From: a phage
DNA: 64,000 bases
NCBI GenBank assembly: GCA_019326865.1
Contig: GCA_019326865.1_4101.1
Direction: 5' to 3' (one strand)
Part shown: piece after piece, positions 9,005 through 43,055 of the stretch
Layout: the number at the start of each line of letters is the position of its first letter
How positions within the stretch are numbered: position 1 is the stretch's first letter
Program-made: the position numbers and the translations under genes
The notes under the pieces: model-generated
Seen by the model: only the letters and a program-made list of their open reading frames with translations
The model's database searches: none
What the model was told of the DNA's origin: nothing

Positions 9005-9406
9005 ATGACTACAGTTGATGATATCTATAGTACTATACGAAATATGAGTACAGATAGAAAAGTATTTGGTGATAAAGAAAAATCTAAGTGTTATGGTATT
9101 GATTCTTTTGATATAATTTCGTATGAGTACAACACGAATGGAAATAGTTCACTGAATATCGTCTGCCCTCGTGACCCAGAAAATAATTTTATGTATGTTG
9201 AAATTAATAATGATGGGATGTTTTTTACAAAAGTTTTCAAAGGTGGTATTAATTACGAACCTATTGAATGTATGAATGAAGAAACTTTCTTTCAAGAAGA
9301 TACAATTATCAATTTAGGTTTTAGTTTTGCGGATTATAAAACATTAGAACATGACTTTAATCGTTATTATAACGGTTTCTTAAAGGAGTTAACAATTTAT
9401 CTATGA
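9005..9406 (+). CDS. hypothetical protein
   Basis: 133 aa ORF in a co-directional packed array. Confidence 0.6.
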   Translation: MTTVDDIYSTIRNMSTDRKVFGDKEKSKCYGIDSFDIISYEYNTNGNSSLNIVCPRDPENNFMYVEINNDGMFFTKVFKGGINYEPIECMNEETFFQEDTIINLGFSFADYKTLEHDFNRYYNGFLKELTIYL

Positions 9407-10635
9407 ATAACCAATATGTTGAACAAACAATAGTGAAACACTTGGCTGGGTCACAAGCCTACGGAACCAGTACACCTGAAAGTGATACTGATTATCGTGG
9501 TATTTTTCTTGCTAATAAAGAATTTATTCTTACGCCATTCTATAAGGTTAAAGAAGTAGCTGATAAAAATGAAGAAGATACCAAATTCTATGAGTTAAAT
9601 CAGTATTTAAAATTATACACTGATGCTAACCCTAATATTCTGGAATCACTATGGGTTGAACCAGAACACATTGTAGAAAGTACTGAGATTTATGACTATC
9701 TTCGTTCATTTAACCAAAAACTTCTTAGTTCTAAGATTGCATTTTCATATACTGGGTATGCATACAACCAGCTTAAGCGTATGTCAAATCATCATGGTTG
9801 GATGGATAAAGAGCGTATTGCTGAAAAACGATTAAATGAGATTTTAGAAGAACACCCAGTCGATGAGGTTATTGCATGGATGTATGATACATTCCCACAA
9901 TATCTTGTTGAACGTTTAGATACATCTAACTTACATCCATTTAATGCTAAAAAGATCGATTTTGAAAAATATATGCGTGATACGTCATTGCAGTTAGTTT
10001 CGAAAAATCCATTAAAGCAATATCATTTTGTAAGATTAGTGCATAACTACACTACTGACAAAATTCTAGATCGTGATTTCAATTTATTGAATTTTAATAA
10101 TGGCTATGAACTAATTCATTACGGAGAAAACATTTTTGCGATTATTAAAAATCCGAATGAAAGCACTATCAACGGTGATGGTTCATTGCGTTATTTTTCT
10201 AAAGAGCGTAGTTCTGAAGAGTTGAAAACCCAACCAGAACTAATTGTAAAATTTAACGAAAAAGAATATCAGGAGAATAGTGAGAATAGAAAAAGTTATC
10301 ATAAATGGAAAGAAAATCGTAATGCAAAACGTGCTATTTTAGAATCAAAACACGGTTACGATTGCAAAAGTGCAATGCATACAATTAGACTTTTAAATAG
10401 TGCAGAAGATGCATTACAAAGTGGTATTATTCAAGTCAAACGTCCAGATGCACAAATGTTGATGGATATTCGTAATGGTAAATGGAAGTATGAAGAAGTC
10501 TTAGAATATTTCGATGATAAAGTACAATACATTCGTGATGTTCTATATAAGAAATCAGTACTTCCCAAAAAACCTAACATCAAGTTAGCATCGAAAATTA
10601 TAATTGATATTCGAGAAATGCAATGGTATAAGTAA
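9403..10635 (+). CDS. predicted Pol-beta-superfamily nucleotidyltransferase
   Basis: N-terminal GSQAYGTSTPESDTDYRGIF fits the [GS]-x(9-13)-D-x-[DE] NTase signature; 410 aa. Confidence 0.5.
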   Translation: MNNQYVEQTIVKHLAGSQAYGTSTPESDTDYRGIFLANKEFILTPFYKVKEVADKNEEDTKFYELNQYLKLYTDANPNILESLWVEPEHIVESTEIYDYLRSFNQKLLSSKIAFSYTGYAYNQLKRMSNHHGWMDKERIAEKRLNEILEEHPVDEVIAWMYDTFPQYLVERLDTSNLHPFNAKKIDFEKYMRDTSLQLVSKNPLKQYHFVRLVHNYTTDKILDRDFNLLNFNNGYELIHYGENIFAIIKNPNESTINGDGSLRYFSKERSSEELKTQPELIVKFNEKEYQENSENRKSYHKWKENRNAKRAILESKHGYDCKSAMHTIRLLNSAEDALQSGIIQVKRPDAQMLMDIRNGKWKYEEVLEYFDDKVQYIRDVLYKKSVLPKKPNIKLASKIIIDIREMQWYK

Positions 10636-20421: not shown

Positions 20422-20832
20422 ATGATTGAAATGGAAGGCATTCTGGTGTATGATCCAGACCGTGGAGCTATGAAAAAGAAGAAGGATTTCTGGTTAGTCC
20501 TACAACTTCCATTACAGTTGGTTAGATACTACCAGTACTTCATTCGAACTGACTTACATATTGACATTAAAGACCCACAATGGGGGGCACATGTCAGTAT
20601 TGTTCGTGGGGAAGTGCCACCGAATCCAGAGTACTGGAAAAAGTACCATGGTAAAAAAATCAAAATAAAATTTAATCCTGATATCATACAAGTGAAAGAT
20701 AAAAAGAACCCTGGTTCGTTCTTTATTATAGAGTTTGATGATGAATTTATTGGTCATATTCGAAATGAATTGGGATTACAATCAAAGTTCTTACGTTATC
20801 ACATTACAGTAGGTAGAACTTACTACGATTAG
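20422..20832 (+). CDS. hypothetical protein
   Basis: 136 aa ORF. Confidence 0.55.
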   Translation: MIEMEGILVYDPDRGAMKKKKDFWLVLQLPLQLVRYYQYFIRTDLHIDIKDPQWGAHVSIVRGEVPPNPEYWKKYHGKKIKIKFNPDIIQVKDKKNPGSFFIIEFDDEFIGHIRNELGLQSKFLRYHITVGRTYYD

Positions 20833-20850: not shown

Positions 20851-20878
20851 TTGACTGACAACAAAAATATGCTATAAT
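20851..20878 (+). promoter_or_regulatory. strong sigma70-like promoter (TTGACT, 16 nt, TGcTATAAT)
   Basis: near-consensus -35 and extended -10; about 120-nt leader before the lysozyme gene. Confidence 0.6.
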
Positions 20879-20998
20879 ACTTAAACACTTGAAAAGAGAA
20901 CGTTTAAGTACTGTAGAAAGTCCGATGAGGCTTTTGCAAAATGGCCTCTTTGCCATCTTTGTGATTGCCCCGTCTTAACAATCAACAAAGGAGGCGTT

Positions 20999-21925
20999 TT
21001 GAAACAAGCGAAAAAAGCACTGAAAACTAAAATTGCCGTAGGCGTATTAGTTTCATCAGCCCTATTCGCTGCTATTGGATTTTATGGTTTTTCACGACAT
21101 GATCATGTACCATCATTAGACGAAAGTCAGGTGCATAATTTAAAACCACAGTTTACTCAAATTCAAAAGCAGGAACTTCCAGTGGTATCAGCACCGAAAG
21201 AAGTTCCAAGCAGCGAGAAACATTATACGGTTCAACCTGGTGATAGTTATTATTCTATTGCTAAAAAGTTTAAGCCTAAAAATGTGCAACTTGAAGAGTA
21301 TGTTATTTTGTTGAAAAATATCAATTTAAATGCTACGCTTCATACTTCTCAGGGTATCTTTATCCCAACAAAAGAGGATTTGAAAAACATATTATTACCA
21401 GATGTGACTGTACTTTTTGATTATACTGATCCAGAAATTGTCAATCACATCAAAGAAGCTGAAGGTTCAATTGAATTTCAGTCAAAGAATAAACGTCGTT
21501 TACTTGGTGGACAAGTTGGTGTATCATATCGTAATTCTAAATTTTATCCATATCGTGATGTAAAAGGTAACTACACAATTGGATACGGACATTACCTTGG
21601 TAGGAATGCTTCTGATGCAAGTAAATATCGCAATGGAATTACTAAATCGCAAGCACATGAACTTTTATTGGCTGATATGGAACGAATTAACAATGATTTA
21701 ATTTTATTATTGAAGAAAAGAAATGCAACAAACCTTACGGTTGAACAACAAAGAATTTTATTTGAGATGGCATTTACTTTAGGTGTTGATAAGTTAAACA
21801 CTTTCAACAAACTATGGAAAAGTGTTGAAAATCAAAATTACAACAAGTTCAAAAAAGAAATTAAGAATTCTCTATGGTATCGACAAGTTGGTAACCGTGC
21901 AGAATTGTTGTTAAGTTCACTCTAA
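20999..21925 (+). CDS. membrane-anchored LysM-domain lysozyme (GH24-like)
   Basis: TTG start after AGGAGG; N-terminal Gly/Ala-rich hydrophobic segment; LysM-like YTVQPGDSYYSIAKKF; YRDVKGNYTIGYGH parallels T4 lysozyme YKDTEGYYTIGIGH. Confidence 0.65.
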   Translation: MKQAKKALKTKIAVGVLVSSALFAAIGFYGFSRHDHVPSLDESQVHNLKPQFTQIQKQELPVVSAPKEVPSSEKHYTVQPGDSYYSIAKKFKPKNVQLEEYVILLKNINLNATLHTSQGIFIPTKEDLKNILLPDVTVLFDYTDPEIVNHIKEAEGSIEFQSKNKRRLLGGQVGVSYRNSKFYPYRDVKGNYTIGYGHYLGRNASDASKYRNGITKSQAHELLLADMERINNDLILLLKKRNATNLTVEQQRILFEMAFTLGVDKLNTFNKLWKSVENQNYNKFKKEIKNSLWYRQVGNRAELLLSSL

Positions 21926-21942
21926 AAAAAGGTAGGTAAATT

Positions 21943-22275
21943 ATGCTAAATCTAAATATTCAAGGCAACGTTGATATCACTCCAGCAATCCAAGATGCTA
22001 TTTACAATGAAGCAAAAAGTCTGGATAAGTACCGTACTTCTTCAGTACTAGACATTGGTGTTCATGTTAAGAAAGAGCATAAAACTCAATATGCTGTAAC
22101 TTTAACTGCTGGTAGTAAATCAGTAACTGCTGATGATGCTGATTTGTATAAAGCAATTGTTGAATCTTTTGATAAGATGGAAACTGTATTCAGTAAAGAC
22201 AAAAGCATTAAATTACACCGCCGAAACCATCCAGAACACCCCGTTCTTGATGATTTGACAGAAAACGAAGAGTAA
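21943..22275 (+). CDS. hpf: ribosome hibernation promoting factor (HPF/YfiA family)
   Basis: MLNLNIQGNVDITPAIQDAI...YAVTLTAGSKSVTADDADLYKAI aligns along its length with E. coli HPF (MQLNITGNNVEITEALREFV...). Confidence 0.8.
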   Translation: MLNLNIQGNVDITPAIQDAIYNEAKSLDKYRTSSVLDIGVHVKKEHKTQYAVTLTAGSKSVTADDADLYKAIVESFDKMETVFSKDKSIKLHRRNHPEHPVLDDLTENEE

Positions 22276-22285
22276 TATATACTAA

Positions 22286-22314
22286 AGGGACAGATTAATT
22301 CTGTCCCTTTTCTT
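22286..22314 (+). terminator. intrinsic terminator
   Basis: stem AGGGACAGA/TCTGTCCCT, T-run. Confidence 0.7.
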
Positions 22315-22328
22315 ATGGAGTTTTAATT

Positions 22329-22724
22329 ATGAATTATTCCTGGATGGAAATTGTAAAATCTATAATATCAACACATGATATGGACTTACCTGAACACCTA
22401 GTTATTAATAGATGGTTCTATCCATATCCAGATAACCGTTGTGTTGGGATTGGATTTTTTATTAATGAAAAATCTCAATATATTGGATTAATTGAAGATT
22501 ATACAAAACCCAACATTGCGTTCTCTATTGAGTTGAATGTAGATCACATAAAATACTACACTAATAAAATGGACGAAGACGATGGTGATGTTATAATTCC
22601 AGCAGAAATAGACGAAGCTTCATTTTTTCAGTTATCATTAATCCATGATGTATCTGATATTACTTATGATAATGTGAAAGACCTTTTTATATTGTACAAT
22701 AAACTGTATAATTACTTTTTATAA
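22329..22724 (+). CDS. hypothetical protein
   Basis: 131 aa ORF. Confidence 0.55.
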   Translation: MNYSWMEIVKSIISTHDMDLPEHLVINRWFYPYPDNRCVGIGFFINEKSQYIGLIEDYTKPNIAFSIELNVDHIKYYTNKMDEDDGDVIIPAEIDEASFFQLSLIHDVSDITYDNVKDLFILYNKLYNYFL

Positions 22725-22737
22725 TGGAGATAAATTT

Positions 22738-22923
22738 ATGGAATATACAATATGTATAGTTATATGTATCATATCCTTACTAGTCGGGGTTGGTGTGATG
22801 ATTTATTGTGATGCAGAACCAAGTACAGAAGCAGGAACAACTATTGAACTTAAGCCTGGTATTAAGGTAAATGATTCATATTGTTACGATCCACATAGTA
22901 ATAAGTATGCGATTTGTCTATGA
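22738..22923 (+). CDS. small membrane protein
   Basis: 61 aa; N-terminal TM helix ICIVICIISLLVGVGVMIY. Confidence 0.5.
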   Translation: MEYTICIVICIISLLVGVGVMIYCDAEPSTEAGTTIELKPGIKVNDSYCYDPHSNKYAICL

Positions 22924-23330
22924 AAAAGTTTGATATTAAACCTATGATTGATGCTATCGAAATTAAATTAAAAAATACTAAAAAGCCAGATAGTACAGGT
23001 TTGTTCTTTAGTTTAGATAAAATGTATTATGAAACACACGTGTCAAGTTATGATAGAACAGGAAATCTCTTCATCCGTACATATAACTTATTTTATAGTG
23101 AAGATGTTTTTATGATAGATATAAATCTGGATGAAAGTATAGTGTTGATGTATATTGAGGATGTTCAATCCACAGAACAACGAAACGGGACTCTTCCTAT
23201 TGCTGCTACAGAGGAAGAGTTTTTGCAATATCAGTTCATTGAGGATACCTTTGGTATTGACTTTGATACATATCAGAGTATAATGAGGGTATACGAACTT
23301 TATGAGGATTATGTGATTGGACGTTACTAA
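22914..23330 (+). CDS. hypothetical protein (paralog pair with ORF at 23317)
   Basis: C-terminal block QYQFIEDTFGIDFDTYQSIMRVYELYEDY resembles QYMFIDDTFSIDYPSFQCILDIHAKYYDR. Confidence 0.6.
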   Translation: MSMKKFDIKPMIDAIEIKLKNTKKPDSTGLFFSLDKMYYETHVSSYDRTGNLFIRTYNLFYSEDVFMIDINLDESIVLMYIEDVQSTEQRNGTLPIAATEEEFLQYQFIEDTFGIDFDTYQSIMRVYELYEDYVIGRY

Positions 23331-23739
23331 AATTCCAAAATTTAATGAAACGTTAAAGTACTTTGCTGAACACGAAATCAGTACTGAAAGACGTGGTTTA
23401 ATTACATATAATCAACATCGTGTTATGTACACTAATAATTTTCAGGGTACTGTTCGTATTAAATATCGTAATGCACTCGAAGACAATGATGAATTGTTAA
23501 TTTTACTAAGAAAAAGTAAGATTGAATTGACATACGTAACTCACCATATTGAAAGTGAGTTGATGTGGCACACCCTATCAAAAAAAGAAGGTTCATTACC
23601 AGTTGTTGATAATGGTCCTGAAACACTTGATCAGTACATGTTCATTGATGATACATTTAGTATTGACTATCCTTCATTTCAGTGTATACTAGATATACAT
23701 GCAAAATATTACGACCGTCTACGTGACAGATTAATTTAA
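23317..23739 (+). CDS. hypothetical protein (paralog pair with ORF at 22914)
   Basis: 140 aa; see paralog. Confidence 0.6.
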   Translation: MDVTKIPKFNETLKYFAEHEISTERRGLITYNQHRVMYTNNFQGTVRIKYRNALEDNDELLILLRKSKIELTYVTHHIESELMWHTLSKKEGSLPVVDNGPETLDQYMFIDDTFSIDYPSFQCILDIHAKYYDRLRDRLI

Positions 23740-23874: not shown

Positions 23875-24987
23875 ATGAAAAAGTATTTGGTTGGAGGTTA
23901 TACGAGAGATCGTTTAATGGGCATCCGTGCAAAAGACAAAGATTATGTCATTGTTGGTGCAACTGAATCCGATATTAAGTACTTGCAAAGTATTGGTTAT
24001 AAGCAAGTAGGCAAGGACTTCCCTGTGTACTTGAGTCCAGAGGGTAATGAACACGCATTGGCTCGTACCGAGCGTAAGACTGGTACTGGATATGGTGGCT
24101 TCGAAGTGAATACAAAAGGTGTAACACTAGAACAAGATCTATATCGCCGTGATCTCACAATCAATAGTATTGCGTATGATCCAGTACTACAGATTCACAT
24201 CGACCCTTATGGTGGGAAAGCTGATATCAAGAACAAAGTACTTCGTCATGTATCAGAACACTTTAAAGAAGATCCATTGCGTGTTCTACGTTTGGCCCGT
24301 TTCGCTACACGTTACTCAGACTTTTCTATCCATGAAAGTACAGAGGAACTTGCTATTGGTATGGTCAATAGTGGTGAATTAGATCATCTTGTTCCAGACC
24401 GTGTTTTTGTAGAATTTGAAAAAGCATTTTCTGAAGAAAAACCTGCAAAGTTCCTTAAGACGCTAAGTAAATTTGGTTATTATGAGAAAGTTTTCAAAAC
24501 ATCTCTAACTAAAAAGAATTTAGACCTAATTGATTATATTTCTGAAAACTGTACTGATGTATATAAGCCATATTTTTTATGGTCAGTACTTCTTGAAAAT
24601 GAAGAAGTAAATAATGATTCAGTACTTAACGGTGCTATTAAAGTTCCAGTTAAGTATGTTAAATTTAGCAATTATATCAAACGTTTCCGTGATGATATCA
24701 AAACATTTCGTAAAAAGACCCCAAATGAAATGGGACAGTTATTACTGGAAATGAATATCAAGAATAACGGTGGTGAAGAATTTCTTTACAAAGTACTGGA
24801 ATATTTCATTCTAAGTAAAGAAATTGATTTAGAACTTGAAGATCTAATTATTAAAGTTTATGATCGATATACTGATGTTGAATTACCTGATATTCAGCAA
24901 TTGGTTAAAGATGGTGAACTAGAAACGTCAGAAATTCGTGATTTTGTTTGTGAACTTCGTTACGAAGCAATCAAACAAATGTTCTAA
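23875..24987 (+). CDS. cca: tRNA nucleotidyltransferase (CCA-adding enzyme, class II)
   Basis: LVGGYTRDRLMG...KDKDYVIVGAT...DFPVYLSPEGNEHALARTERKTGTGYGGFEV...RRDLTINSIAYD parallels the E. coli Cca head domain; 370 aa, no obvious HD domain. Confidence 0.8.
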   Translation: MKKYLVGGYTRDRLMGIRAKDKDYVIVGATESDIKYLQSIGYKQVGKDFPVYLSPEGNEHALARTERKTGTGYGGFEVNTKGVTLEQDLYRRDLTINSIAYDPVLQIHIDPYGGKADIKNKVLRHVSEHFKEDPLRVLRLARFATRYSDFSIHESTEELAIGMVNSGELDHLVPDRVFVEFEKAFSEEKPAKFLKTLSKFGYYEKVFKTSLTKKNLDLIDYISENCTDVYKPYFLWSVLLENEEVNNDSVLNGAIKVPVKYVKFSNYIKRFRDDIKTFRKKTPNEMGQLLLEMNIKNNGGEEFLYKVLEYFILSKEIDLELEDLIIKVYDRYTDVELPDIQQLVKDGELETSEIRDFVCELRYEAIKQMF

Positions 24988-25094: not shown

Positions 25095-25496
25095 GTGATG
25101 GTCAGATACTTATCGGACATACAACACGGACAGAAACATTGGGATTTACCTAAAGGAAAAGCAGAGGGCGATGAAACGTTCAAAGAAGCTGCTGTGCGTG
25201 AATGTTTTGAAGAGACAGGATATAAAATCGATGAAGATGATCTTCTGTTTCTTGGTGATGTATCCTATAGAAAGGGAAAAAGGTTGGTTCTTTTCTTTTA
25301 TACTGCTAAAGACAAGCCTGTACCAGATGAATTAGTATGTAAAAGCACTTATACTAATAGATATGGTAAGAGTCATCCAGAATTGGATAAGTTCATGTAT
25401 ATTGATGTACGAGAATGTCAAAAGTATTTGACTGAACGAATGTGTAACAGTATTATAAAAGCTGTTAAAGCTTTTCAAAGAAATAAAAGGAAATAA
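25095..25496 (+). CDS. Nudix hydrolase (N-terminal strand encoded in another frame at 25064-25153)
   Basis: Nudix box GKAEGDETFKEAAVRECFEETGY; GTG start; upstream frame encodes MRYSCGIIFYRDGQILIGHT. Confidence 0.7.
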   Translation: MMVRYLSDIQHGQKHWDLPKGKAEGDETFKEAAVRECFEETGYKIDEDDLLFLGDVSYRKGKRLVLFFYTAKDKPVPDELVCKSTYTNRYGKSHPELDKFMYIDVRECQKYLTERMCNSIIKAVKAFQRNKRK

Positions 25497-41148: not shown

Positions 41149-42129
41149 ATGGCTAAAAAAATTAATGAAGCACAAGTTAAAATCGATATCGCAGGTTTAG
41201 AATCTGATGATTTGGAAACACTATCCCGTATGTTAGCTCTTGCTGGTCAAGCTGAACGTCAAGACCCTGTGGTTGCTGCTCCAGTATCATCTATTGGGTC
41301 TATGGCTCCATCTCTACCACCTATTGCACCACTAGATCTTGATTCTATTAGTGCCGAAAAAGAAATTGGTGGAATTGAAACTTCAGTTGAAGATCCATTG
41401 GCAGCAGCAGTTGATGGTCTTTCCGCTGATGATGGTGATTTTGGTGCTGACACCGATGAAGTTGGTATTGATGCTGAATTTTCAGAACCAGGCGTAGAAG
41501 GTGAAGAAGATTTTTCTCTTGACCTTAGTGGTCAACCTCAACTAGAATCAGTTGAAGAAGACGACGATGAGGAAGAAGAAATCATCGAAGAAGAATTCGA
41601 TTTTAGTCGTATGCTATCTCTTGCTGGTATTAACGAAGAAGAAGACGACGATTTTTCCGTAGAGGGTAATACTGCTACTGATAGAGAAATGAAAGATACT
41701 CAATTTCTACCAGATCTAAGTATCTCTGAAGATGAAGAACCATCTGACAGTACTGATTATGGTCCATATAATACTGAAGTTGATGCAGTTCGTGATGGTC
41801 AACTTAAGACTAATGGTGTTGAAGGTGATCATTTTGTTGTAATTGCGAAAGGGAACCAGTTTTATTGGAGACGTGTTGTAGATGAAGATGTTGACAATCG
41901 TCCAGAACCAGAGTATTATGACAATGAAGGAAACGAAAATCGCGTTCATAAATTTGAACCAAAATCTCCAGGTACTGCATTAGGAGATAACCCACTCAAT
42001 GTTAATGAAAGTGAAGAAGATGATTCACCAGAAGGTAACACTGACTTGGAAGATGACTCTGATGAAGAAGTAGAAGATATTTTCGAAAGTCTCCAAGAAA
42101 AATATAAAAAATTTTTAGGAGACAAATAA
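41149..42129 (+). CDS. highly acidic protein
   Basis: 326 aa with long D/E runs such as SVEEDDDEEEEIIEEEFDF. Confidence 0.6.
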   Translation: MAKKINEAQVKIDIAGLESDDLETLSRMLALAGQAERQDPVVAAPVSSIGSMAPSLPPIAPLDLDSISAEKEIGGIETSVEDPLAAAVDGLSADDGDFGADTDEVGIDAEFSEPGVEGEEDFSLDLSGQPQLESVEEDDDEEEEIIEEEFDFSRMLSLAGINEEEDDDFSVEGNTATDREMKDTQFLPDLSISEDEEPSDSTDYGPYNTEVDAVRDGQLKTNGVEGDHFVVIAKGNQFYWRRVVDEDVDNRPEPEYYDNEGNENRVHKFEPKSPGTALGDNPLNVNESEEDDSPEGNTDLEDDSDEEVEDIFESLQEKYKKFLGDK

Positions 42130-42130
42130 T

Positions 42131-42526
42131 ATGCAATATAATTATCGTGAACTAGTTGAAGCGTTGGACGAAATCACCGGACGAGATGAAGAAGGAAGTT
42201 TTTCCGTTGAAGTTGATTCCGATGTTGTAGCAATTGATGTTCTTAAAGATATTACCAAATGTCTCGTTGATATTGTTGATAAGATTAAATCTGGTGAAGA
42301 TCAAAAAGAAATCGTTGATAAACTACAAAAAGCATGTGACATTTTGTCTGACATTCGATATAATGATGAAAGTACTGAAGTCGATGATGATGAAGTGATG
42401 GAAGCTATTGCTGGATGTTTTGGAACTGAAGGTATGGGTCCAACGATTGACAAAGATGGCGTACAGCACTATAATGAACCAGATGCACCATCTTATGCTG
42501 CACGCCAAGGTTATGTTGGAGACTAA
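42131..42526 (+). CDS. hypothetical acidic protein
   Basis: 131 aa ORF. Confidence 0.55.
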   Translation: MQYNYRELVEALDEITGRDEEGSFSVEVDSDVVAIDVLKDITKCLVDIVDKIKSGEDQKEIVDKLQKACDILSDIRYNDESTEVDDDEVMEAIAGCFGTEGMGPTIDKDGVQHYNEPDAPSYAARQGYVGD

Positions 42527-42531
42527 AATAT

Positions 42532-42912
42532 ATGTTTCCTGTACCATCACATAACAGTACTGAATATCAAAATGATGTACTTTCCAAAGTTAGGGAAGTA
42601 CATGAATCAGATTCAGAAATAACAGACCGTATGCTTCTGATGTCAATTTTTGAAAATTTCAGAACTGGCGGTGGTTTACGTCTTAGCAAGTTTGGGTATG
42701 GAATTTGTAAAGAAAATAATCTTTATGAATTTACAAAAATCCCCTTGCAAAGAGAATTTAAAAGTTCTATAATGTTTACATCACTTGACAGAATATGTAC
42801 TTCACCTTATTATGTTGAAGGTCAGTACATATATCTGACAGATGCAATGATAATAACTGAATTAACATTGTGTTGTGATGATTTTAAACAATTATTTTCT
42901 ATTCATATGTAA
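42532..42912 (+). CDS. hypothetical protein
   Basis: 126 aa ORF. Confidence 0.55.
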   Translation: MFPVPSHNSTEYQNDVLSKVREVHESDSEITDRMLLMSIFENFRTGGGLRLSKFGYGICKENNLYEFTKIPLQREFKSSIMFTSLDRICTSPYYVEGQYIYLTDAMIITELTLCCDDFKQLFSIHM

Positions 42913-42924
42913 GAAAAATAAATG

Positions 42925-42952
42925 TTGACAAGATAGAATGATGTGATATAAT
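42925..42952 (+). promoter_or_regulatory. sigma70-like promoter P1 (TTGACA, 16 nt, TGaTATAAT)
   Basis: consensus -35 and extended -10; duplicated about 100 bp downstream. Confidence 0.6.
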
Positions 42953-43027
42953 AAGCATCAGACATAAAGTTTTCAAGCGACACAAGATGTGAGTTTGAAA
43001 AAAATAAAAAAAAGTGATTGACAAGTT

Positions 43028-43055
43028 GAAACGATGTGATATAATGTTCACATCA
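43028..43055 (+). promoter_or_regulatory. sigma70-like promoter P2 (TTGACA, 16 nt, TGaTATAAT)
   Basis: near-identical copy of P1; A-tract immediately upstream. Confidence 0.6.

Follow-up and report, generated by a model that had tools for sequence, protein, structure and literature searches.

Hibernation promoting factors (HPFs) encoded by phages were described as a class by Mizuno et al. 2019, in rV5-like coliphages and Cronobacter phage GAP32 (PMC6375957). When the rV5 HPF was expressed in E. coli, the protein was found in the lysate but not with salt-washed 70S or 100S ribosomes, and 100S levels remained unchanged (PMC6375957). HPF/YfiA also ranks among the closest structural relatives of two other phage proteins, namely T7 Gp1.2, an inhibitor of the host dGTPase (PMC9478638), and the cyclic-nucleotide sponge Acb4 (PMC11722364). 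For the cellular factors, the ribosome-contacting residues are available from recent cryo-EM work (bioRxiv 10.1101/2025.10.07.680626). The C-terminal tail of YfiA runs toward the site of RMF and is disordered in cryo-EM maps. For the genus Asteriusvirus, the genome paper of phage Sharanji counts the HPF-like gene as a translation factor, together with an IF3 homolog, a CCA enzyme and tRNAs (PMC11895373).

Here, we analyzed a stretch of 64,000 nucleotides (the window) from an Asteriusvirus, a 121Q/PBECO4-type coliphage with the ~350 kb genome of a jumbo myovirus. The region shares 97% identity with Escherichia phage UE-S1 and 80-92% with 121Q, PBECO4, SP27, slurp01, Sharanji, phAPEC6 and others, all of which are Asteriusvirus. 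The gene under study (21943..22275, plus strand, ATG start) encodes a protein of 110 aa, which the original prediction took for a phage-encoded HPF homolog. The sequence, the predicted fold and the phage origin of the window all bear this out. The homolog was correctly identified but is already known: the class has been published, and a 100% identical protein is present in at least 11 GenBank phage records, with the public labels “HPF/RaiA family ribosome-associated protein” (GenBank/RefSeq) and “Sigma 54 modulation/S30EA,” and the PBECO4 copy is named “Ribosomal subunit interface protein” in UniProt/BFVD. What is added here concerns the architecture, contact-residue conservation, selection and regulation of the Asteriusvirus HPF-like gene.

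Family membership, fold and ribosome-contact residues

In an HMM search against the HPF/RaiA family, the means by which the homology was to be checked, the protein matched PF02482 (Ribosomal_S30AE, HPF/YfiA) with E = 3.3e-10 and 41 bits, well over the Pfam gathering cut-off of 23.7. The alignment joins protein residues 5-87 to profile positions 2-84 of 88 (83 of the 88 positions), and this is the single Pfam domain of the protein. Dodecin was the one other Pfam family matched even at E ≤ 10, with 19.5 bits against a cut-off of 22.5, and we attribute this weak match to a shared beta-alpha-beta pattern. Among the PHROGs, the protein matches phrog_8990. A phmmer search of all PDB sequences returned almost exclusively hibernation factors, with the HPF of T. 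thermophilus as the best match (E = 4.9e-7), and every one of the 23 PDB sequences matched by a profile of the phage family is an HPF/YfiA/pY. The N-terminal MxLNIxGNxVxIT block and the central block, on which the homology had been proposed, are both present in the translation, and both align with E. coli HPF and YfiA. Scores against the curated NCBIfam models fell under their cut-offs, with 36.3 bits for TIGR00741 (yfiA, the HPF/YfiA equivalog; cut-off 40.9), 23.2 bits for NF007780 (gammaproteobacterial short HPF; equivalog cut-off 125) and 19.3 bits for NF007654 (RaiA/YfiA; equivalog cut-off 158). These scores thus identify a family member that is an ortholog of neither the host HPF nor the host RaiA. 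As judged by sequence comparison, the phage protein truly belongs to the HPF/YfiA (RaiA, protein Y) family of ribosome-associated factors, from which it has diverged.

The AF2 model of the protein has a core with pLDDT of 83-88, composed of strands 2-8, 36-44, 50-56 and 59-65 and helices 14-30 and 68-86, followed from residue 88 by a tail of ~20 aa that is modeled with low confidence and predicted to be disordered. In a Foldseek search of this model against the PDB, the best 38 matches were all hibernation factors (HPF/YfiA/pY), with TM scores of up to 0.81. The superposition on E. coli HPF in the 100S ribosome (6h4n_x) gave an rmsd of 1.7 Å over 90 columns and a TM score of 0.79.

We then mapped the ribosome-contact residues onto the phage protein by alignment, over 13 phage-family clusters and in E. 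coli numbering, with reference sequences of E. coli HPF and YfiA verified against the PDB; the phage protein is ~24% identical to the former and ~23% to the latter. The equivalents of K29, K80, K87 and K89 are invariant lysines in the 13 clusters, and the equivalent of Y/W30, which stacks on A790 in HPF/YfiA, is Y or F. At the YfiA-specific pair R95/R96, the first residue is R (H in one cluster) and the second is R in all clusters. The equivalent of R83, which contacts m4C1402 in both HPF and YfiA, is T in 11 clusters, V in one and K in one; that of K26 is variable, and that of K91 is I or V, with a conserved K next to it. In total, 6-7 of the ~10 main ribosome-contact positions are kept, and R83 is lost. 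In addition, the motif D-L-Y-x-A-I is invariant in the phage family, as is the phage-specific stretch HVKKEHKTQ, which has no counterpart in cellular HPFs. As to a possible loss of the basic character needed for rRNA binding, the pI of 5.5 (core 6.0) is comparable to those of HPF (6.5) and YfiA (6.2); with net charge and pI in the range of the E. coli proteins, this property provides no argument either way on rRNA binding.

The phage tail (KLHRRNHP...DLTENEE) and that of YfiA (KGEARRAA...FVEEVEEE) are of similar length, and both contain an RR pair and end in acidic residues. With HMMER, the alignment to E. coli YfiA runs no further than residue ~88 and leaves out the tail; the resemblance of the tails is therefore architectural, with homology undemonstrated. 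The core slightly favors HPF, given that the phage-family profile scores E. coli HPF with 30.9 bits vs 24.2 bits for YfiA. Because these score differences are small and all scores lie under the cut-offs, the sequence assigns the protein to neither the HPF nor the RaiA subtype, and it is RaiA-like by architecture only. The dimerization domain of long HPFs of the Firmicutes/Thermus type, which occupies ~60 aa after a linker, is absent from the protein, which ends at residue 110 with a single Pfam domain and a tail predicted to be disordered. Given the RaiA-like architecture and the lack of the long-HPF domain, a 100S-promoting factor is not the best guess.

Proposed action on host ribosomes

The gene is a conserved accessory gene of Asteriusvirus-type jumbo coliphages and their Salmonella, Klebsiella and Erwinia relatives, and we consider it moderately probable that the protein is a RaiA-like plug of the 30S decoding site that holds vacant host 70S ribosomes. 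Beyond the observed homology, fold, residue conservation, selection, synteny and operon structure, ribosome binding, its timing and its benefit are inferred, as follows. The protein would plug the 30S decoding channel of vacant host 70S ribosomes, where it would overlap the positions of the A-/P-site tRNA and of the mRNA through the aromatic Y30 and through a stripe of basic residues in helix 2 and the tail (K78, K85, K87, K90, R93 and R94), so that idle ribosomes would be held as inert, protected 70S particles. Since the long-HPF dimerization domain is missing and the tail is RaiA-like, the action expected would be that of RaiA, that is, stabilization of 70S and competition with 100S formation driven by host HPF/RMF, and not promotion of 100S. 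The probable benefit for the phage would be that, in hosts that grow slowly or have been shut off, the ribosome pool stays intact and can soon be used again. The loss of R83, the variable K26 and the change of K91 to Ile/Val, as read from the alignment, count against a plug of the decoding site. By analogy, the absence from ribosomes of the rV5 HPF, the only phage HPF put to a published test, also counts against this model, but that protein belongs to a separate lineage with 43% identity to E. coli HPF. Further points against it are the NCBIfam scores under the cut-offs, the architectural nature of the tail resemblance, the possible share of an overlapping promoter in the conservation of the tail, and the non-ribosomal roles that phages have given to HPF-like folds.

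The slight preference of the core for HPF, which recurs in the NCBIfam scores (NF007780, 23.2 bits vs NF007654, 19.3), would suit a true HPF-type factor that, together with host RMF, drives 70S into inactive 100S, for shutdown of host translation or for ribosome storage. We regard such a factor as unlikely, since these score differences are small and far under the equivalog cut-offs, and since the ~20-aa tail is absent from the short HPFs of 95 aa. The RR pair of the tail points in the same direction, given that its YfiA equivalent contacts rRNA and uS7 and that the YfiA tail points toward the RMF site. The lack of a long-HPF C-terminal domain in this one-domain protein of 110 aa, and the unchanged 100S levels observed with the rV5 HPF (PMC6375957), also argue against it.

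The lost contacts themselves (R83 to T, K26 variable, K91 to I/V) would fit a lower affinity and, with it, an anti-hibernation decoy, an idea that goes back to the work on rV5-like phages (PMC6375957). By weak or transient binding, such a decoy would displace host HPF, RaiA and RMF, and the ribosomes of starved or defense-arrested cells would stay free for phage mRNAs. A RaiA-like tail could exclude RMF, and the group invests in translation, as the related Asteriusvirus Sharanji encodes an IF3 homolog, tRNAs and a CCA enzyme (PMC11895373). However, most of the basic and aromatic contacts are kept, and we rate a decoy as improbable, to the same degree as the HPF-type factor. It overlaps with the RaiA-like plug, from which it would differ in affinity and outcome only.

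It is less likely still that the fold now serves a target other than the ribosome. For such a switch there are precedents in Gp1.2 (PMC9478638) and Acb4 (PMC11722364); the rV5 HPF was not found on ribosomes (PMC6375957), and the invariant HVKKEHKTQ is specific to phages. However, in the Asteriusvirus protein, in contrast to Gp1.2 and Acb4, homology to HPF/YfiA is significant at the sequence level, and the ribosome-contact stripe is retained. Membership in either of these two families was rejected. For the Acb4 anti-CBASS sponge, there was no match to PF13876 at E ≤ 10, and the fold has an extra N-terminal strand relative to the alpha-beta-beta-beta-alpha order. A Gp1.2 homolog (“Inhibitor of dGTPase” of Escherichia phage HZ2R8) came just 42nd in the BFVD search, with a TM score of 0.49 and 8% identity.

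The lysozyme-HPF transcription unit and its neighborhood

The HPF gene lies 17 nt downstream of the stop codon of a gene for a LysM and phage-lysozyme protein (20999..21925, plus strand; 308 aa; PF00959 and PF01476) with an N-terminal hydrophobic anchor, and there is no terminator between the two genes. The lysozyme gene directly precedes the HPF gene in all relatives examined. Upstream of the pair, a sigma70-type promoter-like site (20851..20878, plus strand) reads TTGACT-16-TGcTATAAT and matches 11 of the 12 consensus positions. Its extended -10 element (TGCTATAMT) is kept in the Asteriusvirus relatives, and TTGACA-17-TAGACT occupies the equivalent place in EJP2 and Hallingskeid. The HPF gene has its own Shine-Dalgarno sequence, AGGTAGG, as read at 21930..21936 (plus strand), and the equivalent position in the relatives is occupied by AAGGAAGGTG or AGAGGTG. 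The terminator that had been predicted to belong to the HPF gene was confirmed as an intrinsic terminator (22284..22316, plus strand), with an 11-bp stem (22284-22310) and a T-run, a folding energy of -17.2 kcal/mol and z = -5.3 compared with shuffled sequences; it closes the lysozyme-HPF unit and is also annotated in the UE-S1 record. In EJP2, Hallingskeid and the Logan contig L002, the stem sequence differs, whereas the hairpin and the T-run are kept. The HPF gene thus has its own terminator, apparently without a promoter of its own, and the arrangement indicates that it is transcribed with the LysM-lysozyme gene from the putative sigma70-type promoter.

Between this promoter and the lysozyme gene there is a conserved 5' leader of ~100 nt (20913..20998, plus strand, within a region noted as 20905-20998). 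It comprises the invariant element GTAGAAAGTCC (20913-20923), a hairpin GAGGC...GCCTC (20927-20948) and a predicted helix in which CCATCTTTGT (20953-20962) pairs with 20985-20994, which would sequester the lysozyme Shine-Dalgarno sequence AAGGAGG (20988-20994; all on the plus strand). The element GTAGAAAGTCC and the hairpin are invariant even where the proteins are just 30-46% identical. For the helix, RNAalifold on an alignment of nine loci found five pairs with compensatory changes, and 95.8% of the cells are paired, compared with 47-65% in controls with slid partners. With ~3 independent lineages in the alignment, this is suggestive, not proof, that the Shine-Dalgarno-sequestering helix is real. 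An Rfam search of the conserved leader returned nothing above noise. The leader may serve to control translation of the lysozyme. As far as the loci compared here indicate, the whole unit, consisting of the putative promoter, structured leader, LysM-lysozyme, HPF and terminator, is common to jumbo phages of Salmonella, Klebsiella and Erwinia.

A second sigma70-type promoter-like site (22255..22283, plus strand; TTGACA-17-TATACT) overlaps the 3' end of the HPF gene; its TTGACA encodes the Leu-Thr pair of the conserved C-terminal DLTE, and its TATACT stands just past the stop codon. TTGACA and a -10-like hexamer are kept at the DNA level in nine of 11 loci, distant ones included. The predicted start at ~22290, ~7 nt past the -10 hexamer, falls inside the 5' arm of the terminator, so that transcripts from the embedded promoter would escape termination. 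The conservation of the tail may accordingly owe something to the overlapping putative promoter and not to the peptide; the acidic residues of the tail, by contrast, are encoded in the promoter spacer, a segment for which no preference for particular bases is expected. Across the window, there are 13 near-consensus sigma70 sites (at least 11/12) on the plus strand and none on the minus strand, with ~5 expected for both strands together. This excess is consistent with transcription of the region by a host-type holoenzyme. Seven of the 13 sites crowd into a segment of 1.3 kb (41744-43045). Because an RpoD-like sigma factor is encoded by these phages as well (PMC11895373), the timing of expression is not deducible from the sequence.

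The neighbors of the HPF gene suggest upkeep of the translation and RNA machinery. The window encodes an RlaP-family nucleotidyltransferase of an RNA repair pathway (9403-10635), a CCA-adding tRNA nucleotidyltransferase (23875-24987) and a NUDIX hydrolase (25095-25496). In Hallingskeid and the Munch-like L002, too, the lysozyme gene immediately precedes the HPF gene, genes for a CCA-adding enzyme and a NUDIX hydrolase follow a few genes further downstream, and an RNA ligase is encoded a few kb upstream (of the lysozyme, as noted for relatives L002 and L011). Upstream of the lysozyme in the window, an ORF of 136 aa (20422-20832) with two H-x-T/S motifs (HVSIV and HITVG) resembles 2H phosphoesterases, with a sub-threshold score of 22.7 bits against the 2H-SAK phosphoesterase domain (cut-off 27), and L002, a distant relative, likewise has a gene with a weak 2H-SAK match upstream of its lysozyme gene; the ORF possibly codes for an RNA-end-healing enzyme. 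There are no tRNA genes in the window. Just downstream of the HPF gene, there are three paralogous tandem ORFs (22329-22724, 22914-23330 and 23317-23739) without a Pfam match, the second and third of which share a C-terminal region (BLASTP E = 9e-10), with the first weakly similar (E = 0.006).

This neighborhood brings up a broader and doubtful scenario, an anti-defense module in which the RaiA-like protein, together with the CCA-adding enzyme, the 2H-phosphoesterase-like protein, RlaP and, in the relatives, the RNA ligase, would protect the translation apparatus. A plug of the decoding center would then shield idle ribosomes from nucleases that target the ribosome or 16S rRNA, from toxins and from RMF/HPF dormancy triggered by abortive infection, and the phage IF3 homolog would re-mobilize the ribosomes.

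Distribution, selection and relation to known systems

A word-indexed homolog search recovered close relatives only, in 14 clusters with 61-100% identity, whose contigs reach 370 kb in length. When 1.84 billion cluster representatives were searched exhaustively with a profile, just 63 proteins were found at E ≤ 1e-3, 6 of them at E ≤ 1e-10. The next relatives (P0016-P0019 and P0021) are 103-116 aa long and 25-29% identical to the phage protein; P0016 is 72.6% identical to proteins of the Salmonella phages Munch, 7t3 and SE_PL and Klebsiella phage fENko-Kae01. The copy of Erwinia phage Hallingskeid is 46% identical. A further match, P0015 (E = 2.6e-34 against the phage HPF profile), was judged to be probably spurious, a sum of weak repeat matches. 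This is a 1605-aa protein of Diplonema papillatum, named “putative kinesin,” with 29 near-identical repeats of 55 aa.

An intact HPF-like ORF is present in more than 30 phages, including distant genera, at the same locus. The shared locus in Hallingskeid and the Munch-like L002 indicates that the gene is old in the enterobacterial jumbo phages of this group. In comparisons with 121Q, PBECO4 and A4, in which synonymous sites are unsaturated, dN/dS is 0.11-0.16 for the HPF-like gene and 0.16-0.18 for the adjacent lysozyme gene, which points to purifying selection on the HPF-like gene. Phage UB (L004) encodes an identical HPF protein in flanks that are just 86% identical, an apparent hyper-conservation that is explained by mosaicism: the HPF genes of UB and the window differ at one synonymous site, compared with a dS of 0.71 for the adjacent lysozyme gene, which places a recombination junction between the two genes. 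The gene is truncated or split in Salmonella phages SD-15_S21 and SD-1_S14 and in phage CMSTMSU (L012, L013 and L014). We did not take these copies as a sign of dispensability, because the neighboring lysozyme is also fragmented and one of the records is flagged UNVERIFIED, which suggests errors of assembly or sequencing and not a loss of the genes. That the gene is a decaying passenger without function, as such broken copies could suggest, is thus very improbable in view of the dN/dS values, the intact ORF at one locus across distant genera and the probable assembly errors. Mass spectrometry of phAPEC6 virions identified neither the ortholog gp292c nor the lysozyme gp293c, which is weak negative evidence on virion association.

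Should the protein prove to bind host ribosomes, the phage would be a rare example of a virus that supplies its own ribosome-parking factor. The protein would also offer a way into the management of the ribosome pool by jumbo phages when their gut bacteria are starved, and into the question of whether hibernation factors are involved in phage-host conflict. With its strong conservation, its RaiA-like tail and a locus common to several phage genera, the Asteriusvirus protein may be a better candidate for such a factor than the rV5 protein that failed. Given that the gene is annotated and the idea published, the remaining value lies in an experiment on ribosome binding by phage HPF/RaiA homologs.

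Among the known systems, E. coli RaiA (YfiA, protein Y; 113 aa) has the same fold, belongs to the same Pfam family and is similar in length to the phage protein. Both carry a flexible C-terminal tail of ~20 aa, with an Arg-Arg pair (R95/R96 in YfiA, R93/R94 in the phage protein) and an acidic terminus (EEVEEE vs DLTENEE), and the aromatic residue 30, K29, K80 and K87 are conserved. The phage protein differs in that R83 and K91 are not kept, with an overall identity of ~23%, and in that its gene is phage-borne and, as far as the locus indicates, co-transcribed with a lysozyme gene. E. coli short HPF (YhbH, 95 aa) has in common with the phage protein the fold, the MxLNIxGNxVxIT block, the D-x-Y-x-A-I motif and the conserved K80, K87 and K89, whereas it is without a tail and needs RMF for 100S formation, and the phage protein extends to 110 aa with its tail of ~20 aa. 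The HPFs of rV5-like Vequintavirinae (for example, ABI79209) likewise belong to PF02482, come from large coliphages and are annotated as RaiA/HPF, but they form a separate lineage of ~130 records with 42-44% identity to E. coli HPF. By tblastn, the Asteriusvirus-type and rV5-type HPFs do not retrieve each other, and a search with E. coli HPF misses the Asteriusvirus type. The HPF-like proteins of related jumbo phages (Munch/7t3/SE_PL, fENko-Kae01, Hallingskeid and GAP32), at 103-111 aa, are of the size found here; the match to the Munch type was made by sequence. Those of Hallingskeid and L002 share the locus and the tail pattern, K-x-L-S/A-K-R followed by an acidic end. Identity to the Asteriusvirus HPF is 27-46% for the Hallingskeid and Munch types and 16%, with a relationship by fold only, for Cronobacter phage GAP32. 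These jumbo-phage proteins are orthologs or older relatives of the Asteriusvirus HPF, and not the same protein.
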